From: a virus
Taxonomy: Duplodnaviria > Caudoviricetes
DNA length: 64,000 nucleotides
Direction: 5' to 3' (one strand)
IMG/VR virus record: IMGVR_UViG_3300028277_000003
Span: 1,436 to 65,435 of that record
Made by a program: the position numbers and the translations under genes. Shown piece after piece: positions 3 to 30,526 of this stretch. The notes below the pieces were generated by a model that was not told the DNA's origin, made no database searches, and was given only the letters and a program-made list of their open reading frames with translations. Position 1 is the first letter of the stretch; each line of letters starts with the position of its first letter.

Positions 3-116
3 GCGAGATATTTAGATGAGGCTATCCCGTTAGACTTTCAAGGAAACGAAATCCGTTATACACAAGGTAGTCGCATACCAGATAATTTTCGTAATGAATG
101 GGGGTTTAACGAATGA
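3..116 (+). CDS. 3' end of a hypothetical protein (partial, enters from the left edge)
   Basis: Frame 3 is open from base 3 (ARYLDEAIPLDFQGNEIRYTQG...WGFNE*); its TGA overlaps the next ATG (ATGA at 113-116), the coupling pattern used throughout the window. Confidence 0.6.
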   Translation, partial: ARYLDEAIPLDFQGNEIRYTQGSRIPDNFRNEWGFNE

Positions 117-628
117 ACCCCTTCGACAAAGCGTGGCTTTTGCTCAAAGCGCCAATTGTGCCCGGTACGATGCATCAAACCGGGAAAAATGAGTATACCG
201 CTTTGTTTCAAGACCCACAAACTAATGAGATTCTTCCAGTGTATGGTTCTAAGCAATCTTATCCGGTGGCGATTGATGAGCATAATCCTGTGGGTGGAAA
301 TATTGATTCTTACAAAGCACAAATTTTAGAGGCCGGTGGCGAAAAATATGAGCGGGGCGGAAAACTATCGTATGATGATGACCCACGGCGGGCTATGACC
401 AGCATTTCTTCGGCGGATTTTACTAAGCCTGAAGTTGTACCACAGTGGACTCAGACGAGGGGTGAGCATAAAAATAAAGGATATATGCAGTCACTTTATG
501 ATTTTGCGGCGGTTATGGCGGCGAAGGATAAAAATCGAATTGTGCCGTCTGTTAGTCAGACTGAGGCGGTTAAGAATGCGTGGAAAGGTCGGGATGAATG
601 GCCGATACCTGACAATCTAGAGTTTTAA
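113..628 (+). CDS. Tagged protein with C-terminal GNAT acetyltransferase-like domain
   Basis: Starts MNPFDKAWLLLK; C-terminal TQTRGEHKNKGYMQSLYD...IVPSVSQTEAVKNAWK resembles GNAT motif A (xR/KxxGxxxxLY) and the following SQT..W segment. Confidence 0.6.
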   Translation: MNPFDKAWLLLKAPIVPGTMHQTGKNEYTALFQDPQTNEILPVYGSKQSYPVAIDEHNPVGGNIDSYKAQILEAGGEKYERGGKLSYDDDPRRAMTSISSADFTKPEVVPQWTQTRGEHKNKGYMQSLYDFAAVMAAKDKNRIVPSVSQTEAVKNAWKGRDEWPIPDNLEF

Positions 629-679
629 ATGGGAGGATACGCAATGAACCCCTTCGACAAAGCGTGGCTTTTGCTCAAA
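113..679 (+). repeat. Identical 36-bp direct repeat at two gene starts (113-148 and 644-679) encoding MNPFDKAWLLLK
   Basis: atgaaccccttcgacaaagcgtggcttttgctcaaa is present at both positions; the sequences diverge completely afterwards. Confidence 0.95.
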
Positions 680-3010: not shown

Positions 3011-3274
3011 ATGAAACCAATAGATGCAGCAATAAAACTTCTAAAATCTACCCCTTCTGCTCAAGTCGCTATGCAACACGATATGCCTTCTTACATGGAA
3101 GAAGCACTAAATCAAAGCGGTAAAACTCGTTCTGATAGCCGAAAAAAGAAAGACAAGGCATCAAAACTACGTCAAAAAATAGACGACCACGAAGAAGATT
3201 CTCAAATAATTGATTTTTACAGACAGAATCATCCTGAGTGGTTTGATTCATTTAGAAGTGGCGAAGGTGAGTAA
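3011..3274 (+). CDS. Small tagged hypothetical protein
   Basis: GGAGAG RBS; begins MKPIDAAIKLLK-S, a tag variant. Confidence 0.75.
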   Translation: MKPIDAAIKLLKSTPSAQVAMQHDMPSYMEEALNQSGKTRSDSRKKKDKASKLRQKIDDHEEDSQIIDFYRQNHPEWFDSFRSGEGE

Positions 3275-3854
3275 ATTGGATAAAAAACCAAAGAAAGGCG
3301 TTGCAGTAGTTATCAGCATTGGCCCAAAAATGAAAACTAAGCCCACCGATGCCGCTACTCCCGAAATGCCAATAAAGAAGTATGGTTCAATGCCGATGAA
3401 AAAGGCATGGAGCATTCTAAAAAATGAAGATTACCCTCCTATGAGTACTCGCTCAACACCAAGAAGTAGCCCTTATCGTTTTATGAATGAAAATCGTATT
3501 CATAGAGAAGGGGCGCAAAATCACGCTAGAGAAGATGACATAAACGATTCAGAATACGAAGATATGGAAGATATGGAACCGCCATATGGTAAACCTGAGT
3601 TTGGTAATGAAGGTGCACGTGAAGCAGAAATGAATCAAGCAGAACGTGCTGCAATAATGGCAGAAGGTATGCCTGAAATGCAAAGGCCACGTAGTGCACC
3701 TAGACCGGGTGACCCTAGATTTAGAGGCTCTAGAAGAAGTGATGCACCTCCCAATTCAGAAGGGTATCCTCCATTCTTTAATTCAGATGTTGAAGATTCT
3801 GCTCATAATCAACCAAGACCTAGTATGCCAAGAGACGTTTTTGCAAACAGGTGA
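3267..3854 (+). CDS. Low-complexity tagged hypothetical protein
   Basis: In the 3210-3854 ORF; GTG at 3267 overlaps the previous gene end; internal PMKKAWSILK tag; P/R/E/M-rich, probably disordered. Confidence 0.7.
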   Translation: MSKLDKKPKKGVAVVISIGPKMKTKPTDAATPEMPIKKYGSMPMKKAWSILKNEDYPPMSTRSTPRSSPYRFMNENRIHREGAQNHAREDDINDSEYEDMEDMEPPYGKPEFGNEGAREAEMNQAERAAIMAEGMPEMQRPRSAPRPGDPRFRGSRRSDAPPNSEGYPPFFNSDVEDSAHNQPRPSMPRDVFANR

Positions 3855-4300
3855 TTGGGTTGACTGCATTCAATGAGGCTTGGCAATTTCTCAAAACCGA
3901 GCCAATTGATATGCATCAAGGCTCAGATGGAACTTGGCGTGCACCTCAGGAAGATATAACACCAGAAAAAAAATTGTGGCAACAAATCCAAGCAAGAAAC
4001 GCACAGGCTAGGCAAAACTTGAGTGAAGACGTTTCCCACGCTCCAACTCAGGAAGAATTAGAAGCACACCCTGATTTTGGTAAAACGTGGTTTCCTAATT
4101 ACATTCCTAAAGATTACACAGGTAACACGATGGTTAACTCAGAAACAGGCAATTACGACCCGAATGACCCTAAAGGTTGGCATCCTATGGGGGAACCGGA
4201 GTTACCTGAAGGCATGACTATGGGAAACTATTTGGAGAGACAAAGTGAGCAGAATCCTGAACATCGGCGGTTAGGCCAAAGTGATAACCTTAGGAGATGA
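3851..4300 (+). CDS. Tagged hypothetical protein
   Basis: GTGA overlap with the previous stop; AFNEAWQFLK tag near the N-terminus. Confidence 0.75.
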   Translation: MIGLTAFNEAWQFLKTEPIDMHQGSDGTWRAPQEDITPEKKLWQQIQARNAQARQNLSEDVSHAPTQEELEAHPDFGKTWFPNYIPKDYTGNTMVNSETGNYDPNDPKGWHPMGEPELPEGMTMGNYLERQSEQNPEHRRLGQSDNLRR

Positions 4301-4375
4301 TGCGATGTGGACTCGGTAACACTTGGTTTGGTCCTAAACCTACATCACAACCGGGGTATTCAGGATGGATGTAAA

Positions 4376-6670
4376 ATGGTATTCAATAAATCTTGGAACT
4401 ATTTGAAAAGTGATTGGTCGTCTACTGATAGTTTATATGGTAATGAGTATGAAGATGAACCTAGTATAGAAAGAAAAAGACATACAGTAGATAATAATTA
4501 TCAAACCACGATACCACAATTTGACCCAAGATTAGATGAAACAACTGGTTGGCAGGGTGTAGAACCTGTTACGGCTATTCGTGTACAAGGAAATCATCGA
4601 AAGGCAGGTCAAGCCGTACCACAAGATGGTTCTAATAAAAACTTTGAAGGAGGTGACCCAAGACTTCCACAAAGGATTCCCGAAATACCCCATGATGATG
4701 ACCCTGTTTGGGATGACCCCGACTCACGATGGAGTAAAGACCCCAAATCGGGTTCAAGATATTATATGTCCGGTAAATATGAAGATGGTAAGTATAACCC
4801 TCGCAGTAAAAAACATTTTGCTGATTTGAAAAATGCAAAGGCTGGAACTTGGGCTGCAAAAAATACTGTCGGAGATATTCGTAATTTATTCACTCATAAC
4901 AACCACGAAAAGTTAGTTTACATTCGTGGAAATCTTGATAAATATGGTAAAGTACACAGAAGAGATAGTGATGAAGCGCAAGAAGATTTAGCAGAAGCGT
5001 TTATCGAACACGACAAAGATATTCCACGCGAAAGCCTTGTTGAAGTACCATTACGCGACCATTATTTACATCAAACGAGAGAGATGGGCACTCCTGACCT
5101 TGGTCCTAATAGACGTTCTAGTGAAAAAGGACGAATTAGTAGGTGGAATGACAAACCAGTACCTTGGGGTGAATCAAGGGAACCAACTAAAAAAATAGAA
5201 GATATGAATGATGATGAGTTTCAAGAATTTCAAGAATCATTATACGATAAAACCCCTGAAGAAATCCATGAGTTAACAAAAGGAAGTCCAATGGACATAG
5301 CCTTCCAGTTGCTCAAGGGAAAGACAAGGCAATCTACTCTTTGGGGTTACGACCCAAAAATGGTAGAGAACTTACTCGCAGAAGATAACAGTAATATTTT
5401 CATCGCCGCTAAACCCGGAAACGATGATATGCCCGATGATGAACAAAATGAGCGTTCGGATAAAATGCTACAAGACCTCGCCGCACTCAAAGAGAAACAT
5501 GGTCACTTCGATATAACCAGTGCCACAGGTAGAGCGCAGTGGGACGCAGAACCATCTTTCATGCTCACTAACGTGCCTGATAGTGCAAGGGATTCCATTA
5601 ATGAGATAGCGGTAAGATACGGTCAGGAATCCATGGGAATCTCGGAAAAGGGGGAGAAAGGGGTGAACTACGTTACACCGGAGGGGGAGGTAAAGGACAA
5701 GTTCAGTAGTATGGAGATGCAGGAAAAACCGGAGTACTCTACAGATTTTCCGAGTAGTCAGAGGCTGGCTTTTACGGGTTGGCAGGAAGCAAATAAGGCT
5801 AATCCAATGCACATAGCCTTCCAGTTGCTTAAGGGTTGGGCAGGTGGTGTTAGAGGTATAGGTAATAATGCCACGGACAACATTTATCATTATCCACACG
5901 AATTAGATTACGGCTCGATAGACGAATATATGGGTGAGAATCCTGATGCTACTCTCGGTAGTATGGTAACGCCGTATCTACAAGGACAGTTTACAAATAA
6001 TCCTCCTACAAATCCGCCAGCCTATCAAAGTGAAAGACCTACTCAATTACAAAGCACAGTTCCGGCACCTTTTCCACAAACCCCTGAACAAACAAAAGGC
6101 GTTCAGAATCTTATTAATGAGGGATTCGATGACTACGAGTCTAGGGACAGCGTAAGAAAACCTCATTATGACAGCATGAATAATGCAGTCAGAGTATTAT
6201 CTAGAAATTTAAGAGGAAACCCTGCATACAATTTTACGCCACCGGGAAGATTGCGAGGTACTAAGGGACAGGGCGGTAGAAGTAGGCAAATGCAGAATAT
6301 GAAACTACGAAGTATGTTAGATACCCCTGTATCTCAAAGCATGGCAGAGATGAACATACCGAAACAAGGAATATCAATTGCGGCAGGTGAACCAATGGAC
6401 ATAGCCTTCCAGTTGCTCAAAGAGCGCAAGTCACCAGCAGCATTTGCTCACAAGTTAGAGTATGACAAGCAATATCAAAAGACACCTAAGCGCGTAAAGT
6501 ACCGTGAGCAATTAAACGCAGAGCGTAGGAAGCGTGGCATATACGGTAAGGGTGGTGCGGATGTTAGCCACACACAAGGTGGTAAACTCACTCTTGAAAG
6601 CGCACATGCTAATAGAGCAAGACATTTCAAAAACAAAGGCACTCTCCGCAGGGTCAAGGTGAAAAAATGA
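4376..6670 (+). CDS. Four-module tagged polyprotein (ART-like?, SAM-lyase/DUF3293-like, unknown, HNH-like)
   Basis: Likely start ATG 4376 (MVFNKSWNYLK tag); three internal PM[DH]IAFQLLK repeats delimit unrelated modules. Confidence 0.75.
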   Translation: MVFNKSWNYLKSDWSSTDSLYGNEYEDEPSIERKRHTVDNNYQTTIPQFDPRLDETTGWQGVEPVTAIRVQGNHRKAGQAVPQDGSNKNFEGGDPRLPQRIPEIPHDDDPVWDDPDSRWSKDPKSGSRYYMSGKYEDGKYNPRSKKHFADLKNAKAGTWAAKNTVGDIRNLFTHNNHEKLVYIRGNLDKYGKVHRRDSDEAQEDLAEAFIEHDKDIPRESLVEVPLRDHYLHQTREMGTPDLGPNRRSSEKGRISRWNDKPVPWGESREPTKKIEDMNDDEFQEFQESLYDKTPEEIHELTKGSPMDIAFQLLKGKTRQSTLWGYDPKMVENLLAEDNSNIFIAAKPGNDDMPDDEQNERSDKMLQDLAALKEKHGHFDITSATGRAQWDAEPSFMLTNVPDSARDSINEIAVRYGQESMGISEKGEKGVNYVTPEGEVKDKFSSMEMQEKPEYSTDFPSSQRLAFTGWQEANKANPMHIAFQLLKGWAGGVRGIGNNATDNIYHYPHELDYGSIDEYMGENPDATLGSMVTPYLQGQFTNNPPTNPPAYQSERPTQLQSTVPAPFPQTPEQTKGVQNLINEGFDDYESRDSVRKPHYDSMNNAVRVLSRNLRGNPAYNFTPPGRLRGTKGQGGRSRQMQNMKLRSMLDTPVSQSMAEMNIPKQGISIAAGEPMDIAFQLLKERKSPAAFAHKLEYDKQYQKTPKRVKYREQLNAERRKRGIYGKGGADVSHTQGGKLTLESAHANRARHFKNKGTLRRVKVKK

Positions 6671-7023
6671 GTAATTATCCGTCATACCCAACGACACCTC
6701 CTAAAAAATGTGAATATTGTAATGGTGCTGGAATTATTGACCCTTATGGTGATGAAGAGGATGTGGCTCAGGCTGACCCAAGATATCCACATGAAACATG
6801 TTGGAAGTGCAAAGGAACAGGTATACAGACAGAATGGTCATTTAACCCATATATGCCTTCTTTCCACCCCCCTTCTTTCCACCCCCCTTCTTACCACGCC
6901 CCTCCCCCGTCCAAAATGGAATTAGGAGAGCCAACAATTAATTTTGACCCTGAATGGCAAGAAATGAATAAAAGTTCTAGTGTTGCATTTTCATTAGCGT
7001 GGAACTTACTTAAATCAGAATAA
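6667..7023 (+). CDS. DnaJ-type zinc-finger protein with C-terminal tag
   Basis: CEYCNGAG and CWKCKGTG (two CxxCxGxG motifs), SFHPP tandem repeat, ends AFSLAWNLLKSE. Confidence 0.75.
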   Translation: MSNYPSYPTTPPKKCEYCNGAGIIDPYGDEEDVAQADPRYPHETCWKCKGTGIQTEWSFNPYMPSFHPPSFHPPSYHAPPPSKMELGEPTINFDPEWQEMNKSSSVAFSLAWNLLKSE

Positions 7024-7024
7024 A

Positions 7025-7108
7025 CTGTCCGATAATTCCGATTGTACGTCTATACAAATATACATAATATTACTTGTATATAGACAATACATTAGATTAT
7101 TCGGACAG
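7025..7108. repeat. Long imperfect intergenic inverted repeat (about 84 nt)
   Basis: ctgtccgataat pairs with attat(t)cggacag; inner tgta-c-gtcta-tacaa pairs with ttgta-ta-tagac-aa-taca; AT-rich loop. Confidence 0.75.
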
Positions 7109-7155
7109 CCAACCCTTAAGATGACCCCCACTGTGGGCTAACACGAGGTCACAGC

Positions 7156-7815
7156 ATGAGCAGAGATGTAGGGGATACAAACGAAATGAAAATGACAGGG
7201 TTGATTTTATCTCAATCGGCCTTAGTTGGATTAGCAATAGGAGTATATAGTTCGGGTTTATGGATGCCCGCAGGTTCAAGTGCAAGTTCAACAATAGATG
7301 GTATGACTTATGCGATGGGTGCGCTTGCAGTTCAAACAATAGCATATTATTTGTTTAAGATGTTCTTTGAACAGTCTATGAAAGAGAAAGTGGAAGTTGC
7401 AGAATTACAAAGAAACAGGCAGAATATGTATAGACAGCAGCAAATGGGCTTTGACCAACGTAGAGTAGATTTAGAATTAAGGCAAATGGAATTACAATTA
7501 GAAAATGAATTACGTATGATGCACGAAGACCCTAATAGAGTATTAGATAATAATCAATTTTTTAATGGTGGTGCCGTTAGTGCTGGCGTTAAAGGAGACT
7601 ATCATAATACCTTCAACCCCGGACTCGTACCTGCGCATGGTGCAAAAAATGAGGCACCTATGAATCTTGGACTTTCTAGTACACAGCAAGCAGTTGATTC
7701 ATTGAATCAATCAAATATACCATCGCGTACTTTACCTATACCACCAAGAGATGGACAACCATCAAACCAGCGAATGAAAAAAGATGGTACACCGGATTTA
7801 AGATATAGAACCTAG
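7156..7815 (+). CDS. Membrane protein (2 TM helices) with coiled coil
   Basis: Hydrophobic segments LILSQSALVGLAIGVYSSGLW and MTYAMGALAVQTIAYYLFKMFF, followed by a Q/E/R/L-rich helix; GAGGT RBS. Confidence 0.8.
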   Translation: MSRDVGDTNEMKMTGLILSQSALVGLAIGVYSSGLWMPAGSSASSTIDGMTYAMGALAVQTIAYYLFKMFFEQSMKEKVEVAELQRNRQNMYRQQQMGFDQRRVDLELRQMELQLENELRMMHEDPNRVLDNNQFFNGGAVSAGVKGDYHNTFNPGLVPAHGAKNEAPMNLGLSSTQQAVDSLNQSNIPSRTLPIPPRDGQPSNQRMKKDGTPDLRYRT

Positions 7816-7829
7816 TGTGGTAGGACAAG

Positions 7830-8117
7830 ATGGTGCTACCCGGACAACTAATTCCTTCTCCTTTGCGTATATTTCGCAATGTTGGTGATGACTCGGTAGA
7901 AGAAACTCTTCGAGCAATGCATTTAGCAAACACCGTCGATAATACATATGAATGGGGCATTGGTTGGATTAGAACCGTACTCGTATCTTTTATCGCTGTT
8001 ATGTGTGTATCTGCTATGGAAGCAAATTCAGATTGGAATCTTTGGGAATTAACAGTTGAATGGTGGTATCAAAAAGCAGCAGACTTTGGTTCTTGGCTTA
8101 CTAATAAGTTTAGTTGA
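7830..8117 (+). CDS. Small membrane protein
   Basis: TM segment WGIGWIRTVLVSFIAVMCVSAM and a Trp-rich amphipathic C-terminus. Confidence 0.75.
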   Translation: MVLPGQLIPSPLRIFRNVGDDSVEETLRAMHLANTVDNTYEWGIGWIRTVLVSFIAVMCVSAMEANSDWNLWELTVEWWYQKAADFGSWLTNKFS

Positions 8118-8123
8118 TGCTTT

Positions 8124-8840
8124 ATGGTTGCTGCTAGTGGTAGTGTATTAGTGGGCGTGGCCTTGTATGGTAAACAGGCATATAATAATTGGAAATCACG
8201 AAGAGTAGGGATTTATGGCGCAACTATGGTCGGTAAGACGACTTTAGATAAATACATGACCACTCCGGGCGAAATGGAAGAAATACCCGAACATGAAAGA
8301 ACTACACATTTCAAATTAGTCACTCGTTATATATTACCCAAACCCACTCGTAAAAGAGTTCGTTGGGAAGGTGAGAGAAGGGTTATTCATTCTGCTGACA
8401 TAGGTGGTGAAGAGCGTTTTTGGAATCTTTGGATTGATGATATGGTAAATAGACAATGTGAGTACGTTATATTCATGTTTGACGATAGAGCGTTTCGAGG
8501 AGGGGATGAGGCTTTACAGCAAATAGGAGGATTCAGATTCTTAGTAGACAGTATAATAAACAGAAATTATAGGTATAGAAATTGGAAGAGTTGGAGAAGA
8601 GGTAAGAAATACGTACCTAAGATGATATTACTAGTTGCAAATAAAGCAGATAGGTATTTTGATGAAAAGGCAGCACAGTTGTGGAGAGAGGGTAGAATTG
8701 GAGAACATAAGATTTTTGACCCTTTTAGAGAAGACCTAATTAGATTACAAAAAGCAGGCGTACCAACACGTCGTTCGTTCATGGCTACGCGTATAGGTTG
8801 GAACGTAGAAAACACATTATTAGAGATGATAGATTACTGA
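8124..8840 (+). CDS. Ras-superfamily (Arf/Rab-like) small GTPase with N-terminal hydrophobic anchor
   Basis: G1 GATMVGKTT, G2 candidate ERTT, G3 DIGGEERFWNLW, YVIFMFD, G4 LLVANKAD, G5-like MATRIGWNVE. Confidence 0.85.
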   Translation: MVAASGSVLVGVALYGKQAYNNWKSRRVGIYGATMVGKTTLDKYMTTPGEMEEIPEHERTTHFKLVTRYILPKPTRKRVRWEGERRVIHSADIGGEERFWNLWIDDMVNRQCEYVIFMFDDRAFRGGDEALQQIGGFRFLVDSIINRNYRYRNWKSWRRGKKYVPKMILLVANKADRYFDEKAAQLWREGRIGEHKIFDPFREDLIRLQKAGVPTRRSFMATRIGWNVENTLLEMIDY

Positions 8841-8854
8841 CCTCAAAAGTGACC

Positions 8855-8862
8855 TTTTTAAT
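8855..8862 (+). promoter_or_regulatory. Candidate archaeal TATA box for a (near-)leaderless transcript
   Basis: TTTTTAAT about 25 nt upstream of ATG 8884 in a short intergenic gap, preceded by purine-rich CAAAAG (BRE-like). Confidence 0.45.
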
Positions 8863-8883
8863 GTGGTAGGGTGTGGGAGTAAC

Positions 8884-9063
8884 ATGGGGAAGGGGACGAC
8901 GACTACTGCATTAGTTTCCACAGGAGGCTCTAGTAATTCACTTAGAACTACTATTCCTATGTGGATTGTAGAGCAGTTTGGTCTATCTGCTGGCTCTAAA
9001 ATAGAATGGACTTTAGAAGTTAAAAATGGGGAAATGTCTATTTCAGTATGCCCACAGGAATGA
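8884..9063 (+). CDS. AbrB/MazE/SpoVT-type DNA-binding protein
   Basis: SLRTTIPMWIVEQFGLSAGSKIEW matches the swapped-hairpin consensus; ATG 8884 preferred over GTG 8863. Confidence 0.8.
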   Translation: MGKGTTTTALVSTGGSSNSLRTTIPMWIVEQFGLSAGSKIEWTLEVKNGEMSISVCPQE

Positions 9064-10037
9064 TACATATGGTAATGGGAATGAATCCTTTCTATAATCC
9101 ACAACAACAAAATCTTGGTCAAGTAAATGACGCTACATTAATGGCGTTGTCACAACAAGGAAATCCAAATTTTTCACACGCTGCTCTAATGGAACAAGCG
9201 TCTGCACAACAACAAATGCAAAGAATGGCAGCAGAAAAAAATATAGAAGTTCCTAAAGTAAACTTCTATCCTTCCCGTCACGCTAATCCATACAAAGCAA
9301 GAAAACTAGATATTCGTCAAGCGTACAAACTTTTGGCTCCTACAAAACGTGCTTTTTTTGACCCTAGAAGATTATTTCGCCATAGTAAATATATGTATAA
9401 TAAAGATACTGCTGTATGTTGTGTAGATGGTTGTAATGTGAAACAATTAATACAACATGATAATTTATATTCTAGAATAACTGATGAAGAGAGCGGTAGA
9501 ACACTTTGGGATATGTATTGGCAGAATCCAGTTACCGGAGAGTCTGAAGCGTTTATTGCTAGAGAGGGAGTAACTAGTGGTCGTAAAATGAGGGCTACCT
9601 ATTGTCCTGAGCATTTACATTTGTATCATTTGTTATGTAGGTGGGAAGACCAACAAGATATTGAAGATGAAATGAAACCTAGTCGTTTCCGTGATAAAAT
9701 AAAAAGAGGAGTTAGTATAGTTACGGTACCGATATCTACTGTTACTGGTGGGCAACAGGGACCAACACACCCTATGATTACAAAATACGAAGGCTTCTTT
9801 GCAGAAATATCAGCAGATGCTAGAGGTAGTAATGGTATTAGTATGCAACATTATACTAATCCGGTTACTGGAGATAATGATATAACAACTATAACATTTG
9901 ACATGAGAATGTTCCAAAAAGAATTAATGGAAATGAATCAAACAAATCCAGCATTTCAGGATGTTCTAAACCAACAGGCTCAAGTCCTTAACCCTGCTCC
10001 GACGATACCGGAAGCAGTAATGGAGGGTATGCAATGA
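9060..10037 (+). CDS. Hypothetical protein, Q-rich N-terminus, putative Zn site
   Basis: Long ORF with ATGA coupling at 9060 (start could be 9069); CCVDGC ... YCPEH ligand pattern. Confidence 0.75.
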   Translation: MIHMVMGMNPFYNPQQQNLGQVNDATLMALSQQGNPNFSHAALMEQASAQQQMQRMAAEKNIEVPKVNFYPSRHANPYKARKLDIRQAYKLLAPTKRAFFDPRRLFRHSKYMYNKDTAVCCVDGCNVKQLIQHDNLYSRITDEESGRTLWDMYWQNPVTGESEAFIAREGVTSGRKMRATYCPEHLHLYHLLCRWEDQQDIEDEMKPSRFRDKIKRGVSIVTVPISTVTGGQQGPTHPMITKYEGFFAEISADARGSNGISMQHYTNPVTGDNDITTITFDMRMFQKELMEMNQTNPAFQDVLNQQAQVLNPAPTIPEAVMEGMQ

Positions 10038-10678
10038 CTATGGGATGGAACAATCAACAGCCAACTACTAATGCGTTAAATCTTAGTCAAACAGGTGCAC
10101 CTATGGGTGGGTATAACGGCGGCTACTCAGCCCCACAACAAGGTTGGTATCAAACTCCACAACAACCCGGAATGTTAAATTCTATGTTTGCTGGTGCAAC
10201 TGGTCAAGACCCGTATAATCAACAAGCCATACTACCACCAAGTGAGACTGAGATTTTAATGACCATGTTAAACACTTCTTATCCAGTAGAAAGATTTCTT
10301 CAATCCCCAATCTTTCCTATGCTTTTAGAAGTTATTAGTCAGATTAATACATTTTCATTACTAAATGTAATTAAAAATGCTAGTTATAATTTTGATGAAG
10401 AGGCTGGTGTTTTTACATTAGATACTGCTAGTTTACCAACTGAACTACAAACTATGAGTTCAGAAAATATAATGTCACAAATGAACTCTATGACTAATAT
10501 GATTAATCAAACAGTTTCAAATGCAGATACACAGAGACAGCAAACAATGCAAAATGCACAACAGAGTATGCTACAAAATCAATTGTCTAATGCTCTGATG
10601 GACCCCGGTATATTAAATAATGCAGCACAAGGTACTGGTACTTTCTTCCGTAGTTTCTTAACAGGTGGAAGAGCATAA
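10034..10678 (+). CDS. Q/N/M/G-rich hypothetical protein
   Basis: GGAGG RBS, ATGA overlap, 214 aa; low-complexity ends around a helical core. Confidence 0.75.
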   Translation: MTMGWNNQQPTTNALNLSQTGAPMGGYNGGYSAPQQGWYQTPQQPGMLNSMFAGATGQDPYNQQAILPPSETEILMTMLNTSYPVERFLQSPIFPMLLEVISQINTFSLLNVIKNASYNFDEEAGVFTLDTASLPTELQTMSSENIMSQMNSMTNMINQTVSNADTQRQQTMQNAQQSMLQNQLSNALMDPGILNNAAQGTGTFFRSFLTGGRA

Positions 10679-10947
10679 TGTTAGGTGGCAATGCCTCTAG
10701 TAATTTTGGTGTACCAGTACCAAGACAAATAGCAGATATGTCAATGCATATGCTTGCGCCAAAAAGAGAAGTAATTGTAGATATGGTAATGGTACAATTA
10801 ATTAGTGCTATACTTATATTCATGGGGATTTTAATATTCAAAAATGGCGATATTAACCAAGGAGAAATGTCTATGTATTTGGTAGGAGTCTTTTTGTCCT
10901 TTATTCTCTTGACATCTATATATCAGCGAATAACGCGGTTTGTGTAA
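10678..10947 (+). CDS. Small 2-TM membrane protein
   Basis: Hydrophobic MVMVQLISAILIFMGILIF and MYLVGVFLSFILLTSIY; TAATG overlap with the previous gene. Confidence 0.75.
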   Translation: MLGGNASSNFGVPVPRQIADMSMHMLAPKREVIVDMVMVQLISAILIFMGILIFKNGDINQGEMSMYLVGVFLSFILLTSIYQRITRFV

Positions 10948-10955
10948 GCAATAGT

Positions 10956-10963
10956 GATTAAGC
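10956..10963 (+). promoter_or_regulatory. Candidate TATA box
   Basis: GATTAAGC about 25 nt upstream of ATG 10984, which sits in the same AACATG context as 8884. Confidence 0.35.
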
Positions 10964-10983
10964 ACACCTTACTCCGCATTAAC

Positions 10984-11667
10984 ATGGTTGAGCGAGAGCC
11001 AGTTATGAAACGTTCCTGTGCATTCTGTCAAAACGATGACAGAGTGGGTTTGGAAGAGGCCATTAAAAATGGTGAATTATCTTGTGCTCAATTAGATAAA
11101 GATATGAGTTGGAGGTCTAATACTGCCGACCGTCATTATCGTAATCACATGGGTCAATACCATATGGCTGCAAATCCATCTTGTTCTATTTGTTCAAGTG
11201 AAAATAGAGCAGATTATGAAAACAGATTCTTTACCGATGGTACTGAATCAGAATTAATAGCAGAAGAATTAGAAATTAAGGAGACTACAGTATATCATCA
11301 TATGAAGCATCACTTTCAACCGTTAGTTCAACGCTCGGCAGCGACAGAAGTTGCAATTACAGTCGGAAATGAAATTACAGTATTACGAAGTAATGTCGAA
11401 AAACTCAACGGAAAACTTTCAGAATTAATGGATGAAGGGAGCGTACATGAAGAAGGGTTTGTGAGAAATGCAGTAACTTTACATAAAGAAGTAAGAGAAT
11501 CAATAAAAGATTTAACCGGCTTCCAAGATAAATGGGGTACACAAATAGACGGTACTCAGGTAAATCAAACAATCAATATACTAAAAATAGAATTAGCAAA
11601 AGAAAGTCCTGAAAGTTGGAAAAGAATCAAAAGTAAGTTACAGGCAGAAATGGAGGAAGTTATATGA
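10984..11667 (+). CDS. Duplicated CxxC/HxxxH zinc-HTH protein with coiled coil; candidate terminase small subunit
   Basis: CAFC...RHYRNH and CSIC...HHMKHH repeats, each enclosing an HTH-like segment; then a coiled coil and the NQTINIL beta-tail. Confidence 0.5.
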   Translation: MVEREPVMKRSCAFCQNDDRVGLEEAIKNGELSCAQLDKDMSWRSNTADRHYRNHMGQYHMAANPSCSICSSENRADYENRFFTDGTESELIAEELEIKETTVYHHMKHHFQPLVQRSAATEVAITVGNEITVLRSNVEKLNGKLSELMDEGSVHEEGFVRNAVTLHKEVRESIKDLTGFQDKWGTQIDGTQVNQTINILKIELAKESPESWKRIKSKLQAEMEEVI

Positions 11668-12068
11668 TACCTGTGTCAGACTTAATGCAAGTCCAACATC
11701 CGGGTTATCGTACTTTTATACAATCTAATAATATGTCTGCTATACATTATCCTTTATTTTTTGATTATTGTATATGTGTGTCAGAAAGATTTAGACATTA
11801 TGCATATCAAGAGGCTAATGTACTAATTAATGAAAATAGTCTAATGCACATAATAGATTGTATAAAGCAATTAGACGATACAGATGAGCCTGAAATAGTA
11901 TTACCGTTAAGAGAACAAATAAGACATTCATGTTACGAGTTCTTAGAACATTGTAATGATATGTCTACTAAATTCAAAAGCCCAACCAGTATTTCTTTAT
12001 TCTACAATGAGTTAGGACAACTCGTGATGCAAACTGCTTTTGAATTTGCGGGGGTACAACATGACTAA
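11664..12068 (+). CDS. Hypothetical protein
   Basis: GGAGG RBS, ATGA overlap, 134 aa. Confidence 0.7.
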   Translation: MIPVSDLMQVQHPGYRTFIQSNNMSAIHYPLFFDYCICVSERFRHYAYQEANVLINENSLMHIIDCIKQLDDTDEPEIVLPLREQIRHSCYEFLEHCNDMSTKFKSPTSISLFYNELGQLVMQTAFEFAGVQHD

Positions 12069-13461
12069 GCCAGTTAAGATTTTGAAGTCAGGTATGACAA
12101 GTACTGGTAGCGATACTCGTATGTATGGACCGAGAGGCGAATCCTCTCACATGTTCCGTAGTAATCATGAAGATGAAGGGGATGTTTACGGAGCAGAAGG
12201 TGGTGAATATCGTGATGCGAGAATTGACCGCAAAAAGAAAGAGCGTAAAGAAAGAGAATCTGAAATGAATAAGTTAAGACATATTTCAGTAACTACAGCA
12301 GATTTACCTCCTGAAGACGAGGAAGAAAAAGATGAAGACTTAGAACCAACAAAATTCGATAATGAACTTGAGCCTTCTTTAATGACCGGTACTCCGGGTA
12401 ATTTCGGTGCTATGACTAGTATGGCTAATCAGGCTAGAGGACCGGGTTTTGCCGGTGGGCATAATTTTGCTATGGGAGAACCAATGGACATAGCCTTCCA
12501 GTTATTGAAAGGCGGGAGAGCCGGTTTTATAGGTAAAAAACCAAAGAGGGAAAAGGGTGCCAAAGCAAGAAGAGCGCATAAAGAAAGGCAGAAGAAATGG
12601 CGGCCTTCGACTGGAGAGTTCAAGAGACCTCCGGGTGGTATGACACCTGCTAGTGCTACATCTAGAAGAGCAAAGGCAAGAATGCGAGGTATTGCTGGTA
12701 GCAAGAAAACAGGGTTAGGTAGAGCACATCTTGCTGTCGAGATGTCTCACAGAGGTGTAAAAACTAAACAGCCTATGTCAAAAGATGTAAAGAGATATAG
12801 ACAATACCTAGGTCAGTCCGAAGCAAGAAAGCGTTTAGGTAACATACGAACTGTATCTTCTACACCTTCTAGATTTGGTGCACGTTCATACAAAGCGGGG
12901 TTAACTGGCGGTGGTACACTACAAAGTCTACTCCCCGGACAAGCCCAACAAATGAGAAGACCATCACTTAGGTCAATTAGACCTCCACCATTAATGCCAC
13001 CTACTGCACCAAACAGACCTACTTTACCTTCACCTTCCATACCGAGTCCTCCTGTAATGTCCCAACCAAGAATGGGAGTTGGGGTACAAAGTATGGCCGG
13101 CCAAAGTCCAAGTTACAGACCTAAGTTACCTAGTTCTTCGATACAAGGTGCACCTGTAATGACTGGTGAGATTGGAGAAGGTAGTGAACTACAAAAAAGG
13201 GGACTATCATACTACGACACCACAGAATTAAGACAATTACTCCTTGATGCTAAAAGAGCCTTGAACCGTAAAGAGAATAAGAAAAAAGGTAAAGGGGAGA
13301 AAAGCGTAGATGCTGCTAGTCATTTACCTGCCCATACAGAAGCAGGCCCGAAACAGACCACAAGACCTGAAGGCGCTACAGAAGATGCAAATAATGAGCC
13401 TCGCACATTTGGTATTAATCCTTTAGACCATCTTACAAGTAGAGGCGGTAGAACACCTTGA
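12061..13461 (+). CDS. Tagged low-complexity protein with acidic, basic and Pro-rich segments; probable internal head protein
   Basis: ATG 12061 after GGGGT; contains a PMDIAFQLLK copy separating an acidic N-terminal part from an R/K-rich part. Confidence 0.75.
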   Translation: MTKPVKILKSGMTSTGSDTRMYGPRGESSHMFRSNHEDEGDVYGAEGGEYRDARIDRKKKERKERESEMNKLRHISVTTADLPPEDEEEKDEDLEPTKFDNELEPSLMTGTPGNFGAMTSMANQARGPGFAGGHNFAMGEPMDIAFQLLKGGRAGFIGKKPKREKGAKARRAHKERQKKWRPSTGEFKRPPGGMTPASATSRRAKARMRGIAGSKKTGLGRAHLAVEMSHRGVKTKQPMSKDVKRYRQYLGQSEARKRLGNIRTVSSTPSRFGARSYKAGLTGGGTLQSLLPGQAQQMRRPSLRSIRPPPLMPPTAPNRPTLPSPSIPSPPVMSQPRMGVGVQSMAGQSPSYRPKLPSSSIQGAPVMTGEIGEGSELQKRGLSYYDTTELRQLLLDAKRALNRKENKKKGKGEKSVDAASHLPAHTEAGPKQTTRPEGATEDANNEPRTFGINPLDHLTSRGGRTP

Positions 13462-15872: not shown

Positions 15873-16535
15873 ATGGGTAAGGTCTATGTTTTAAGAAAAG
15901 ACGCCGATGCTAATCAATCGTCAGCCTTTATGATGGGCGGCGGCCAATCGGGAGGCGGTTTAGGAAACGTCATGTATAATCTACCAAATTGGGTTACACC
16001 TGAGGAAGCGGTTTATGGAACGTATGACAAACAGGGCAACGTCACATCGCCCGGAGCATTACCCACGGATGGTACTGCCACTCGCGAACAAGGTAAACAT
16101 GCAGAGAAATGGGCTAGAGGATTAGGCAGAGCGGGTCTATATGCTGGTGCTGGGTTAGGCGGTCTTAGCGCATTTTACAATTTGAGTTCTAGCGGTCAAC
16201 CGCTTGACTTTAGTGGGATGGCAAATATAGGTACTGCTGCTTATACTGGGGGACGGACTGCACAACCGTATTCTACCACTTTAGGAGCACGAATCGGGGT
16301 AAGAAGAGGAAGAGGAACGGGTACACCTGAGAATAATACTACTGTGCCTACAATCGCCTCTCCAAAACAATTACCTCCTCCTCGGACAATAGATGCTGAG
16401 TTTACAGAAGAAGAAGCGATGTCGCCTACTAATTCTGCAATGGATTCTTTACGAGAGGAGAGTAGAAAACAAAATTGGTTTAATAATAATGATAATTATC
16501 ATCCAATGAATGCTTTACGACAGGAGTATCCATGA
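15873..16535 (+). CDS. Gly-rich protein with glycine-zipper hydrophobic segment
   Basis: GGAGGTG RBS; MGKVYVLRK-D start; GLGRAGLYAGAGLGGLSAFY. Confidence 0.75.
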   Translation: MGKVYVLRKDADANQSSAFMMGGGQSGGGLGNVMYNLPNWVTPEEAVYGTYDKQGNVTSPGALPTDGTATREQGKHAEKWARGLGRAGLYAGAGLGGLSAFYNLSSSGQPLDFSGMANIGTAAYTGGRTAQPYSTTLGARIGVRRGRGTGTPENNTTVPTIASPKQLPPPRTIDAEFTEEEAMSPTNSAMDSLREESRKQNWFNNNDNYHPMNALRQEYP

Positions 16536-18013
16536 GTAAAAGTAAAGAAGAAATGGAAGCATTTATTCTTAATATGGATAAAGAGATGTCTAAGAAATCA
16601 TTCAAGTATTTTTTTGTAGATATGCTAGGTTTCTTGTACAATCATCATCATGAGTCTTGGAAAGTAGGTTTAGAAGAATCACAGTATTTTTGCGTTAAAG
16701 CGTCGAGAGACCACGGAAAATCTGTTTTCTTTATGATGTATGCCTTATGGTTAGCGGCATACAAACCTAATACCCACGTTATGATATTCTCCCACTCTCT
16801 TGAACAAACTCTTGAACACATGCGCTTTGTACGTAATATTATAGAAGGGAACGATATATTAAGACATTTGAAACCCCAAGGCAAACCTTGGGCTAAATCT
16901 TACTTTGAGTTTTCCAATGGTAGTCGTATGATGGCGAAGTCAGTTGGGGGTGCAACTCGTGGTTTCCACCCCGACATAGTAGTGTGTGATGATATTTTAT
17001 GGGGTACTACCGCCAGTGAACTTGCTAAAACAGCAGATTGGTTCTATGGGGTTTTGTTACCTGTACTTCACCACAGCAGTAAACTGATGATGGTAGGTAC
17101 TCCGTTTAGTTACAATGATTTGTATGCAGAATTAGAAGAGAAAGAAACATTTCGTGTTGAGACATATCCTGCGATAAATGAAGAGGGTGTTGCGCTATGG
17201 CCTGAGAGATGGGATTTAGGCGCACTAGAACATAGAAGAATGTCTATGCCCGCTATACAATTTTCACGTGAATATCTTTGTGAACCAATACATGACGTAG
17301 CCAGTATGTTTCCCGGCCCTATGTTAGAAAAATGTAGAGACCCGAAATTAGTTCTTTTAGATAGAGCAGAGACAAATTACAATGAGGAAGGTGAAGCAGA
17401 TGGTGTATTTGGTCAACACTTTATTGGACATGACCCCGCTATATCTTCTGACAAAAATGCTGATTTTACCGCTATGACTGTAATGAGACAAAAACCGGAT
17501 GAAATAATAAAAGAAATTGTCCATGTTGTACATGAAAGAGGTATGTCGTCTATGGCACAAAAAAGAATGATGGTCATGTTAAATAGTCGTTTTTCTCCTG
17601 ATTTAATCGAACTTGAAGGTAACAACTTTCAAAGAATGTTAGCACAAGAAATGAGAGAATTACGAGCAGATATGCCTATTCGTGTTTTCATGACTACTAG
17701 AGCAAAGAAAGAATCTCTTTTCATGTCCTTACTTCTTGCATTTGAGCAAGGACATATAAAACTCCCATACGGTGATGAAAGGAGCAGGGCTTATACTCAC
17801 AAAGTGGAACAAGAATTGAATAGATTCGGTATGCAAAAAAGTGGAAAGTTAGAAAGTGTGGGCGTTCATGACGATTTGGCTATGAGTCTTGCGCTTGCTA
17901 ATTGGGCATCTAAAGAGTTCAAGGGTAGCGTAACACTCTTAGATGATTATATGCCCGGATTTGATGAGTGGTTCAGGGGAGACGAGAAAACAGACTCTCT
18001 ATTGATACCTTAA
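16532..18013 (+). CDS. terL: Terminase large subunit
   Basis: Walker A ASRDHGKS, Walker B IVVCDD, coupling motif VGTP, FSREYLCEP, nuclease IGHDPA..D and HDDLAMSLALA. Confidence 0.95.
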   Translation: MSKSKEEMEAFILNMDKEMSKKSFKYFFVDMLGFLYNHHHESWKVGLEESQYFCVKASRDHGKSVFFMMYALWLAAYKPNTHVMIFSHSLEQTLEHMRFVRNIIEGNDILRHLKPQGKPWAKSYFEFSNGSRMMAKSVGGATRGFHPDIVVCDDILWGTTASELAKTADWFYGVLLPVLHHSSKLMMVGTPFSYNDLYAELEEKETFRVETYPAINEEGVALWPERWDLGALEHRRMSMPAIQFSREYLCEPIHDVASMFPGPMLEKCRDPKLVLLDRAETNYNEEGEADGVFGQHFIGHDPAISSDKNADFTAMTVMRQKPDEIIKEIVHVVHERGMSSMAQKRMMVMLNSRFSPDLIELEGNNFQRMLAQEMRELRADMPIRVFMTTRAKKESLFMSLLLAFEQGHIKLPYGDERSRAYTHKVEQELNRFGMQKSGKLESVGVHDDLAMSLALANWASKEFKGSVTLLDDYMPGFDEWFRGDEKTDSLLIP

Positions 18014-27965: not shown

Positions 27966-29327
27966 GTGCTCGGTAGTCAACAACTATTCAGAAACGGCGA
28001 TGGCCCAATTAGTATCCTCAAGGGTGCTAATGACCTCATCGTTGCTGGTTATGCCAGCGTTGAAGTTGTAGACAAGCAAGGCGACGTAATAACAAAGGAG
28101 GCATTGAAACACGCATTTCGGAAATTCATGGAAAATCCGTCATACAGAAATGTTCAATTGGCTCACAGTAATATACAAATTGGAGACGTTGTACCGAATT
28201 ACACAGATAATGAAGGGAGGTTGTGGAAAAGCGAAGTCGATGATGTCGGAATGTTTGTAGTTGTAAAATTACGAGACGACATCGAGAAAGCAAAAGAGGT
28301 TTCAGCAGAAATCAGAAAAGGCGTTCTCAGAGGATTCAGTATCGGTGGTCAAGCGTTTAAAAGAGTCAGAAAATCAGACCCAAAACGAGGAGACTACCAA
28401 GAAATAAGCAAACTGGAACTTCATGAAATAACGATTTGTGAAAAAGGCATCAATCCCGAAGCAACATTTAGCATACTAAAAGAAGATAACAACACGGAAG
28501 TGAATAAAATGACAGAAACAGAAAATGATAATGAAATGATGAAACAACTTGGTAGCGTACTTTCGCGTTTAGAAGGTCGGCTTGACGATATGGAAAAGGG
28601 CGAAAAACCTGCTTTCCTTGAAGAGAAGAAAGACGACGATAAGAAAGATGACAAGAAGAAAGAAGAAGTAGCGGCAGTAGAGGAAGTAGAAAAGTCAGAA
28701 TACTCTGATGTAATTACTTCTGATTACCTTAACTGGATGGAAGACACTCTAAAGAGTGCTGGAGTAAATACTGCCGAGGCACGTACTCACTTCGACGACT
28801 TAGAGAAAGCCAACCTAGGCTCTACACCTGAAGAAATTCAGGCTAACCACAAAGGTCTAACTGGTCAAGCACCGGGTAGAACACAAGAAGGTGGAAACCC
28901 ATCAACCGGTGCTATCGCAGCAACCACAGGCGGTGGAGTGAAGAAATCAGATTTCATTAACCCAGCATCACTTACAGACTCAGACATTGAGTCTGCGTAT
29001 GAAGTATACAAAGCAGCGGCTCTTGAAGAAGAGTTCCGTGGCTCTCTAGAAAATGATTTCGCATCTCGATATGCGTCAGAGCGTACAACAGAAGTTGCAA
29101 AAGCAGAAGCAGCAGCATATGATGCACGTGGACCACTAGATGAGATAAACAAAGCAATCAGCGCACTTTCGGAGCGTATTGAAGCAATCACCACTCCAAC
29201 AGAAACTGGAGAGCAAATCACAAAATCGGATGCTGATGCACCAACACTAACAGTTCCTTCAACAGAAGATTTAGCAAAAATGTCATGGGATGAAGTTCAT
29301 AACTTGGCATCTAAGGCTTTTGAGTGA
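27966..29327 (+). CDS. HK97-type prohead protease fused to scaffolding domain
   Basis: IVAGYASVEVVDKQGDVI, catalytic His (LAHSN), GFSIGG nucleophile motif, LHEITIC..GINPEA; acidic coiled-coil C-terminal half; directly upstream of the capsid gene. Confidence 0.92.
   Translation: MLGSQQLFRNGDGPISILKGANDLIVAGYASVEVVDKQGDVITKEALKHAFRKFMENPSYRNVQLAHSNIQIGDVVPNYTDNEGRLWKSEVDDVGMFVVVKLRDDIEKAKEVSAEIRKGVLRGFSIGGQAFKRVRKSDPKRGDYQEISKLELHEITICEKGINPEATFSILKEDNNTEVNKMTETENDNEMMKQLGSVLSRLEGRLDDMEKGEKPAFLEEKKDDDKKDDKKKEEVAAVEEVEKSEYSDVITSDYLNWMEDTLKSAGVNTAEARTHFDDLEKANLGSTPEEIQANHKGLTGQAPGRTQEGGNPSTGAIAATTGGGVKKSDFINPASLTDSDIESAYEVYKAAALEEEFRGSLENDFASRYASERTTEVAKAEAAAYDARGPLDEINKAISALSERIEAITTPTETGEQITKSDADAPTLTVPSTEDLAKMSWDEVHNLASKAFE
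28509..29327 (+). CDS. Nested in-frame scaffolding protein (internal start)
   Basis: GGAAGTGA RBS-like sequence, then AT-rich spacer and ATG at 28509, immediately after the protease domain ends. Confidence 0.55.
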   Translation: MTETENDNEMMKQLGSVLSRLEGRLDDMEKGEKPAFLEEKKDDDKKDDKKKEEVAAVEEVEKSEYSDVITSDYLNWMEDTLKSAGVNTAEARTHFDDLEKANLGSTPEEIQANHKGLTGQAPGRTQEGGNPSTGAIAATTGGGVKKSDFINPASLTDSDIESAYEVYKAAALEEEFRGSLENDFASRYASERTTEVAKAEAAAYDARGPLDEINKAISALSERIEAITTPTETGEQITKSDADAPTLTVPSTEDLAKMSWDEVHNLASKAFE

Positions 29328-29356: not shown

Positions 29357-30526
29357 ATGGCACGAAATTACGTACGAACAATAACAGACATGGAAAGATA
29401 CTACTATGGAGCAGGTAACGCAATGGGTTACTCATACTCAGGTAGTGAATTACTCAAGGCCGACAGCCCTATGCTGTCAACAACAGGTGGTACATACCAA
29501 GCAATCTATGGTCGCAAAGTATGGTCACAATTAAATCAAGAATTTAACGCATTCTCTATCCTACCAAAGAAACCATGGGATAGAAGTGGATGGCGAGTTA
29601 TCACCGATAGGCCAAACAGCGGAGCAATTGCTGGTAGCGGTATTGCTGAGAACGGCACACTACCTGAAACTATTAAACCAGCATTCCAACATGTGGCAGC
29701 AAAACCTAAGACTATCGCTCACACATTCGATATGTCTGAAACTGCTATCTTCCTTGCTGACAAGGATGACGGAATGGGCGATATTCGCTCAGTCATGAAA
29801 GAGGAAATGGGTAAACATCACGCAGAAGTCATCAATAAGATGATGTGTGGTGACGTTGACACAGTAGCAGGCAATAATTTCGAGTCTCTTGACCGAGTTA
29901 CTGCTGGATACGCTGCCGGTGCTGCATCTAAGACTGGACTAAGTACAGACGGTGATGCAATAAACGCAAACGGTGACCTAGACATATACAGTATTAGCAG
30001 AAGTGCAAATACATGGTCTAACGCTGAAATGAGTGTAAACGCAGTAGGTGGGACGCAAACCGATAGAACACTTTCTCTAGACTTATTAGATGAGATGTTC
30101 CAAAAGATGTGGATTCGTGGTGGAAACCCGAAAGTTATGTTAACTGGATATGATACTCTAATGAGAATCCAGCAACTTCTACAATCACAACAGAGGTTCA
30201 TGGAAGAGAAGAGAGTTACCCCTACCTACAACGGTGTAAAGGGTGTACCCGGAATCGAGGCTGGTTTCATCGTAGCAACATACAACGGTGTACCAATCAT
30301 TCCTACAAAGAACATGGCAGCAGACACACTATCAAGAGTTTACTACCTAGATACAGATTACTTACACTTCAGCACAGCAATTCCAACACAATACTTTGAG
30401 AGTGGAATAGAAACTGGTGACCCATTCGCAATCAACAGACTGGGCCAAGAAGGACTATACCGTACTATGGGAGAACTATGGACAACTTTCTTCGGAGCAC
30501 AAGGGAGCGTAAGAGACCTCAAATGA
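29357..30526 (+). CDS. Major capsid protein (HK97 fold)
   Basis: Position after protease/scaffold, 389 aa; GIAENGTLP, E-loop-like FQHVAAKPKTIAHTF, ATYNGVPIIP, YYLDTDYL; putative propeptide ending ELLK-A. Confidence 0.92.
   Translation: MARNYVRTITDMERYYYGAGNAMGYSYSGSELLKADSPMLSTTGGTYQAIYGRKVWSQLNQEFNAFSILPKKPWDRSGWRVITDRPNSGAIAGSGIAENGTLPETIKPAFQHVAAKPKTIAHTFDMSETAIFLADKDDGMGDIRSVMKEEMGKHHAEVINKMMCGDVDTVAGNNFESLDRVTAGYAAGAASKTGLSTDGDAINANGDLDIYSISRSANTWSNAEMSVNAVGGTQTDRTLSLDLLDEMFQKMWIRGGNPKVMLTGYDTLMRIQQLLQSQQRFMEEKRVTPTYNGVKGVPGIEAGFIVATYNGVPIIPTKNMAADTLSRVYYLDTDYLHFSTAIPTQYFESGIETGDPFAINRLGQEGLYRTMGELWTTFFGAQGSVRDLK

Follow-up and report, generated by a model that had tools for sequence, protein, structure and literature searches.

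The question raised by this locus is whether a short repeat that recurs between the modules of one viral gene is kept for the sake of its DNA or of the peptide that it encodes. The gene is an open reading frame (ORF) at 4376-6670 of a 64-kb stretch out of a 65.4-kb IMG/VR virus record (IMGVR_UViG_3300028277_000003), the completeness of which is about 60% as per CheckV; this whole stretch is called the window throughout. The four modules of the ORF are separated by a 30-bp repeat that encodes [GS]EPMDIAFQLLK, and we refer to this peptide, wherever it occurs, as the tag. The tag appears to be primarily a peptide signal, most likely a head-cargo and cleavage tag, while use of its coding DNA as a crossover point is plausible. 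The ORF is organized as follows.

4376..6670, plus strand: four-module ORF, 764 aa from the ATG at 4376, with an in-frame GTG at 4307
4376..4408, plus strand: N-terminal tag of module 1, degenerate, MVFNKSWNYLK
4409..5281, plus strand: module 1, G+C at third codon positions (GC3) 0.235, family F5, without Pfam, PHROG or ESM Atlas match
5282..5317, plus strand: tag 1, GSPMDIAFQLLK
5318..5797, plus strand: module 2, predicted S-adenosylmethionine (SAM)-lyase-like fold (AlphaFold2 model, Foldseek), GC3 0.487
5798..5833, plus strand: tag 2, ANPMHIAFQLLK
5834..6385, plus strand: module 3, family F9 (7 members among the 151 proteins described below)
6386..6421, plus strand: tag 3, GEPMDIAFQLLK
6422..6667, plus strand: module 4, 82 aa, very basic (phrog_6437)

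A sequence-only reading of this stretch had described four modules split by three near-identical 30-bp repeats, and its module coordinates proved correct: the 30-mer CCAATGGACATAGCCTTCCAGTTGCTCAAG lies at 5288 (0 mismatches), 5804 (2) and 6392 (1), and matches to it were seen in 0 of 100 dinucleotide shuffles. The distant fourth copy that it had placed in another gene was grouped with these by a repeat search at 12475-12511 (89% over 37 nt), inside ORF 12040-13461, and the synonymous codons that it saw kept among the repeats are identical in 21 of the 26 comparable ones within ORF 4376-6670. The reading frame is uninterrupted across ORF 4307/4376-6670, and the junctions read ELTK-GSPMDIAFQLLK-G, EANK-ANPMHIAFQLLK-G and SIAA-GEPMDIAFQLLK-E. 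The proposed K/[GA] site on both sides of the linker thus exists at two junctions of the window but is not a property of the system, as K or R precedes just 86 of the 251 internal tags counted in relatives, and removal of the linker by double cleavage is therefore not general.

The tag is not confined to this ORF. At least 12 copies were located on 8 ORFs, all within 1-13 kb and none elsewhere in the window, and at least five ORFs besides the four-module one have it in a looser N-terminal form. A tag regular expression run over the six frames of the window gave 9 matches, all of them in sense ORFs in the first 13 kb, and none in the other frames, in the remaining 51 kb or in 50 kb of halovirus HVTV-1. 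The copies outside the four-module ORF are listed below.

113..148, plus strand: N-terminal tag MNPFDKAWLLLK of ORF 113-628
644..679, plus strand: N-terminal tag MNPFDKAWLLLK of ORF 644-1120
3011..3046, plus strand: N-terminal tag MKPIDAAIKLLK of ORF 3011-3274
3390..3422, plus strand: tag MPMKKAWSILK inside ORF 3210-3854
3866..3895, plus strand: tag AFNEAWQFLK near the start of ORF 3851-4300
6985..7023, plus strand: tag-like AFSLAWNLLKSE and stop, closing ORF 6667-7023 at the right border of the variable island
12475..12510, plus strand: fourth copy, GEPMDIAFQLLK, between two modules of ORF 12040-13461

The tags at 113-148 and 644-679 share an identical stretch of 36 bases, forming a second class of tag-coding repeat, which is also found in the relatives L014 and L025 at 91-94% identity.

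The peptide was found to be far more constant than its codons. A back-translated PMDIAFQLLK pattern retrieved 28 IMG/VR stretches in which the peptide was exact and the codons varied, and since codons differ between viruses while the peptide stays, selection seems to act mainly on the peptide. A profile of tag plus module 4 matched 921 cluster representatives at E ≤ 0.001 (236 at E ≤ 1e-30), from which the best 150 of the 921 (119-1354 aa), together with the window protein, were taken as a census of 151 proteins chosen for holding module 4. Their 251 internal tags follow the consensus [SG]-E-P-M-[DE]-I-A-[MF]-[QR]-L-L-K, with P, M, A, L, L and K each retained in 94-100% and the terminal K in 251 of 251. 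N-terminal tags (n=30) read P-[FMIL]-[DE]-x-A-W-x-[VLFI]-L-K, and the small accessory proteins of the virus itself carry the N-terminal form M-x-P-[FMI]-[DE]-x-A-W-x-[LV]-L-K. As module 4 also stands alone behind an N-terminal tag, in P0062 (which starts MNPIDVAWRLLKERVSPEAK) and P0135, the N-terminal and internal tags can be regarded as one device. The bacterial-phage homologue of module 4, gp50 of cyanophage Syn5, is without the tag. A literature search for AFQLLK found no mention, and papers on magroviruses and archaeal viruses searched by terms yielded no polyprotein, tag or cleavage motif, though their supplementary annotation tables might list the ORFs.

The sequence-only reading had further proposed that cassettes are added, swapped or lost, and this is what relatives display: the modules may be reordered, placed in a different gene, found singly or missing altogether. 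The census proteins carry 0-7 strictly defined tags, with up to eight modules in one gene, and cutting the 151 proteins at the tags gave 402 modules in 39 families plus 96 singletons, arranged in 90 architectures. Some positions were fixed: the module 1 family came first in 11 of 11 relatives, and module 4 was last in 126 of 126 family members, where only the position is informative because the set was selected for module 4. Among the 145 proteins with an exact NRARHF motif, module 4 lay within 30 residues of the C-terminus in 131; the other 14 bear tagless C-terminal extensions, several with a CxxC zinc ribbon. The module 2 family, with 9 members, had left neighbours of six kinds. Homology between the proteins also breaks at the tags: with hits of module 4 excluded, 62% of 1143 ends of high-scoring segment pairs fell within 5 residues of a tag edge against 8% in the null, and so did 33% of 679 internal starts, again against 8%. 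Module order and gene thus vary among relatives, with breakpoints falling at the tags, the opposite of the fixed order or non-coinciding breakpoints that would have spoken against the sequence-only reading.

Individual loci illustrate this mobility. In L006 a module 2 homologue is inserted directly behind the tag in the homologue of gene 12040-13461, with a half-decayed tag (...SVMVLK) at the far end of the insert; in L019 it stands immediately ahead of tag plus module 4, and in L012 (2611-3342) and L020 (1569-2300) it follows module 4 without a tag, the join reading ...GTLR-x-x-NK|AQQTL. The closest relative, L014, is colinear with 7028-12928 at 80% DNA identity, but the parts that it has in common with ORF 4376-6670 are only the tags and module 4 (88% identity), and a tag-only mini-ORF at the right edge of its island aligns with the tag-like end of ORF 6667-7023. 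Logan contigs of four marine runs were also compared with 3800-7400, leaving uncounted the uncovered parts and the contig ends at the 30-mer, which are assembly effects. X9 and X11 held contigs with an exact tag beside non-window sequence, with loose ends at 5317, 6381, 6414, 6420 and 6423. One X9 contig diverges at 4375/4376, just before the ATG, and shows a canonical tag after nine other letters; the joint of 4375 to 6390 (9 letters between, side 34) implies a relative whose gene opens with the canonical tag, and the joint of 5318 to 6390 (side 31) is most simply another protein of the form tag-X-tag-module 4. The same tag DNA therefore adjoins other modules in co-occurring genomes.

The modules were characterized by composition and by fold. 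GC3 is 0.310 in module 3 and 0.427 in module 4, next to the values of modules 1 and 2 listed above, and the mean of 30 genes is 0.288 (sd 0.049), which upholds the earlier impression that module 2, at 0.487, is richer in G/C-ending codons. Its homologues in five other viruses have GC3 of 0.25-0.38, below the rough background of their loci, so the high value belongs to the copy in the window rather than to the family. The composition of module 2 is foreign here, which fits a recent acquisition. Third-position GC of L001-L028, counted roughly over long ORFs, spans about 0.21 to 0.64, and with such width among relatives, transfers of modules should leave compositional marks like that of module 2.

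The AlphaFold2 model of module 2 (predicted local distance difference test, pLDDT, 80) had the T3 SAM lyase (8bb1_E) as best Foldseek match (E 2.7e-6, probability 1.00, template modelling scores 0.63/0.68), spanning all 147 residues, with 7ock, 6znb and 6zm9 also matched and the Svi3-3 SAM lyase among the matches. Sequence identity to these structures is 13-16%. Two Pfam hits pointing to the SAM lyases (PF23780 / DUF3293) were sub-threshold, DUF3293 (E 0.0016, 19.5 bits, cut-off 25) and S-AdoMet_lyase (E 0.017, 15.5 bits, cut-off 28), and a module 2 profile gave 0 matches against PDB sequences, the SAM lyase surfacing by fold search only. On the strength of its model, module 2 is predicted to be an enzyme of SAM-lyase-like fold, presumably anti-restriction. 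Modules 1 and 3 were without match in Pfam and PHROG searches, and module 1 had no usable match in the ESM Atlas. Module 4 matches phrog_6437 (E 7e-19, residues 707-777 against 11-82 of the 86 profile positions) and by tblastn Syn5 gp50, P60 and S-CBP2. Its AlphaFold2 model was poor (pLDDT 61.6), Foldseek against the PDB returned nothing at E ≤ 0.001, and its profile had 0 matches among PDB sequences; in this model the tag forms a short amphipathic helix at residues 3-14. An HNH-like beta-beta-alpha reading of D-x-S-H...N-R-A-R-H in module 4 was considered and dropped as an unsupported impression. Of the other tagged ORFs, searched with Pfam at loose thresholds, 680-1120 showed a sub-threshold PARP hint (E 0.11) and no more, while 149-628 was without match. 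The module behind the fourth tag (12511-13458) is a very basic, Gly/Pro/Arg-rich segment of 316 aa, conserved in all relatives examined at 41-76% identity (7176-8100 in L006) and encoded two genes upstream of the terminase region.

A possible link between the tag and the virus head comes from the structural genes, which were located as follows.

16532-18013: T4-type large terminase
19226-20971: portal
27966..29327, plus strand: S78 prohead protease and scaffold-like C-terminal part (one fused protein)
29357-30526: HK97-type major capsid protein
29444..29458, plus strand: SELLK, residues 30-34 of the major capsid protein

The haloarchaeal siphoviruses HVTV-1, HCTV-1 and HCTV-5 have capsid proteins 31-34% identical to the one encoded here, and its other matches are to methanogen viruses only. 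These matches, together with terminase, portal and prohead protease, fit the passages of PMC5434244 that describe magroviruses, and from its sequence we judge this to be a tailed virus of archaea with a magrovirus-like capsid protein. The motif [FWY]x[LIVM]LK, in which the tags end, occurs 11 times in the 20,288 encoded amino acids against 1.2 expected, and 9 of these are tags. The two others lie in a 5613-aa ORF and in the protease, as ATFSILK|ED at residues 166-174, where the Pfam S78 domain (22-173) ends and a variable acidic linker to the scaffold-like part starts; the protease also carries ISILK|G at residues 15-19. In relatives, the protease junction reads I[LI]K followed by [EQ]D at 71 of 71 readable loci, the variable N-terminal leader of the protease ends in [ILV][LIV]K at 67 of 67, and residues 30-36 of the capsid protein are SELLK|[AS]D in 58 of 58; at the matching place the HVTV-1 capsid protein reads ...MSK|AD. 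For the junction variant FRIIK|ED (5 loci), a module 4 query was unmatched in the two records searched, both of which are fragments. The protease leader, the protease junction and the capsid N-terminus are the classical places at which prohead proteases cut. As the relatives compared are close, the tag end F-x-[IL]-L-K, a motif common to the protease, is a lead for a cleavage site and not proof of one. A complex prediction of protease residues 20-166 with a 42-aa segment holding the tag scored 0.01, which weighs neither way.

Several further ORFs of the window were recorded. The giant ORFs are 40662-57503, the one of 5613 aa mentioned above, and 22299-27920 (1873 aa), which lies directly downstream of the portal and lacks any significant match in Pfam or PHROGs. 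A 380-aa ORF between terminase and portal (18082-19224) has a weak LAGLIDADG_3 match (E 0.006, below cut-off), and 8124-8840, in the conserved block downstream of the island, a weak Roc/small-GTPase match (E 0.0043, below cut-off). Within the island of tagged genes, 1117-1965 is without a tag and HMGL-like (HMG-CoA lyase family, Pfam E 1.8e-26).

We propose, with about an even chance of being right, that the 12-residue amphipathic-helix tag is a capsid-cargo address and processing tag whose coding DNA is also a crossover point. Sitting N-terminally on small accessory proteins and between the modules of multi-module proteins, the tag would dock cargo onto the assembling procapsid, where the HK97-type (S78) prohead protease would cut behind L-L-K and free the modules, and these would then travel in the head and enter the host alongside the DNA. 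The modules carried would include the SAM-lyase-like, presumably anti-restriction, enzyme and the small, very basic module 4. The common tag borders would in turn supply short homology for recombination within the tag DNA, and as recombinants broken at a tag stay in frame and functional, modules would be exchanged, lost and gained between related viruses. Given the protease and capsid sites and the precedent of phage T4 taken up below, a cargo tag ending in a protease site is the most economical reading.

A number of observations weigh against this proposal. The halovirus relative HVTV-1 is without tags, and the T3 SAM lyase is an early expressed gene and is not known as a packaged protein. 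A cut after K would leave the tag attached C-terminally to the preceding module, an odd place for an N-terminal address, and a common receptor leaves it unexplained that internal tags are far more uniform than N-terminal ones. With close relatives, such as those in which the protease and capsid sites were compared (at least 76% identity in the capsid protein), conservation of the sites by itself says little, and one of the two non-tag motif matches is about what chance would give (1.2 expected), though not at that position. Between the window and L014, synonymous identity is 0.73 in tags and 0.70 in orthologous backbone genes, so there is no excess conservation of the tag DNA between genomes.

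A bolder form of the proposal joins three functions in a tag common to abundant archaeal viruses of the ocean, as capsid address, as mark for the head protease and, through its 36 coding bases, as integrase-free, in-frame crossover by which injected anti-defence modules would pass between co-infecting viruses that would draw on an order-wide pool of cassettes; we offer it only tentatively, as it is rather doubtful in this full extent.

It is unlikely that the tag helix instead docks to another common partner (a chaperone, a membrane, or a hub protein of the host or the virus), with the proteins left uncut and without any link to the capsid. The short amphipathic helix suits such a role, as does the position of the tagged genes, which is upstream of the terminase and outside the group of head genes. 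Against it, the last five residues of the tag match the motif that ends the protease domain, K ends every one of the 251 internal tags, and the same modules occur both alone and fused, which is natural if cleavage undoes the fusion.

The sequence-only reading had favoured the 30-bp DNA as a recombination handle. Its cassettes are indeed independent and the breaks do lie at the tags, but the DNA is only a candidate cause of the exchanges: the tags sit at domain boundaries, selection alone would also retain recombinants broken there, and the data fit either cause. The strongest form of this idea, in which selection is for the DNA as a handle and the peptide merely follows from it, draws on codons. 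Those of the tag are rare in the genome (GCC 9%, CTC 6%, TTG 15%, CAG 20%) and yet retained in all copies, and under the codon usage of the genome two independent copies would share all codons with a chance of 4e-4. Across 60 tags, synonymous codon identity was 0.658 (181/275) within the same ORF versus 0.491 between contigs, a level reached in 0 of 5000 label shuffles, and tag pairs on the same contig but in other ORFs (n=24) stood at 53.5%. The greater uniformity of internal over N-terminal tags, the orphan and half-decayed tags at junctions, and the contigs that break and branch at the tag point the same way. However, the peptide hardly changes from virus to virus whereas its codons vary freely, N-terminal tags follow the peptide pattern although their DNA is quite different, assembly with 31-letter words is expected to break contigs at a repeated 30-mer, and the tags of close relatives are no more alike at synonymous sites than the backbone genes, as given above for L014. 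Non-orthologous copies of the tag are as alike as orthologues, and the likeness within one ORF shows that tags have been copied or homogenised locally. As a consequence of copying, the likeness of tag DNA gives 19-29 bases of perfect homology, and selection of the DNA for its own sake is very unlikely.

We regard as highly improbable that the tags are hidden gene starts, with a Shine-Dalgarno-like GGNGA ahead of the ATG of P-M-D giving rise to a nested set of proteins, an option that had been left open because each repeat holds an ATG. Position 4 is M in 245 of 251 internal tags and mostly F in the N-terminal ones (n=30; F 17, M 6, I 4, L 3), and GGTGAACCAATG and GGAGAACCAATG are present in the window. 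However, GGAG or GGTG precedes the ATG in just 15 of 60 tags, with AGCGAA as the commonest spelling there (19 of 60), a start at the tag Met would omit the x-P of N-terminal tags, and hundreds of proteins keep an open frame across the junctions. Plain domain accretion, giving an ordinary multidomain protein in which the tag is just a conserved linker without any common function, is hardly credible: multidomain phage proteins of variable architecture are common (as in the passages of PMC5512222), but the same 12 residues head many single-domain proteins of the island, and linkers are not normally 98% conserved per position.

The proposed cargo and processing tag has its nearest likeness in phage T4, where the capsid targeting sequence (CTS) ends at a prohead-protease site and is removed by gp21. 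In the account of PMC3012670, as far as its relevant passages go, a short conserved N-terminal CTS is borne by the internal proteins IPI-III, which are unrelated, fast-changing accessory or anti-defence proteins, and here, too, proteins of a single virus that are otherwise unrelated have a short conserved peptide in common. The present system differs in that it belongs to an archaeal virus with an HK97/S78-type protease, has a site that ends in Leu-Leu-Lys and not in Glu, and places the tag between the modules of long ORFs also; loading and cutting are predictions here. Polyvalent proteins of phages and conjugative elements (Iyer et al. 2017, PMC5512222) are described, in the passages that treat them, as unrelated effector domains in variable architectures, for which entry into the host alongside the DNA and subsequent processing are predicted, and to which the four unrelated modules of this ORF and the 90 architectures among 151 proteins bear a likeness. 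Those proteins are freed by embedded peptidase domains, whereas neither a peptidase nor a signature polyvalent-protein domain was found within ORF 4376-6670 by Pfam and PHROGs; moreover, a conserved 12-residue tag here bounds the modules and also heads stand-alone genes, and these passages of PMC5512222, from which the word 'linker' is absent, mention no common peptide that delimits the domains. In phage P1, DarA is an anti-restriction protein packed in the head, the N-terminus of which is removed by the protease Pro, and the relevant passages of PMC12810830 report no portable common tag or polyprotein format; head packaging was shown experimentally for P1, while here it is deduced from sequence. 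Module 2 differs from the T3 and Svi3-3 SAM lyases in being embedded in an archaeal-virus polyprotein, its likeness to them being mainly one of predicted fold. In contrast to integron-like or site-specific cassette systems, no integrase family was detected among 20 window ORFs scanned with Pfam, and the repeats themselves are translated in frame.

Magroviruses rank with the most abundant viruses that infect archaea of the surface ocean, and most of their genes are without known function. If the proposal is true, dozens of orphan proteins in each genome would be united by a common tag in one functional class, probably virion cargo, and this would indicate what magroviruses deliver at entry. The SAM-lyase-like cargo would then hint at restriction or another SAM-dependent defence in the uncultured Poseidoniales, and the tag would be the first archaeal-virus counterpart of the T4 capsid-targeting system. 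The locus also serves as a naturally occurring case of cassettes exchanged in frame at a repeat that encodes a peptide.

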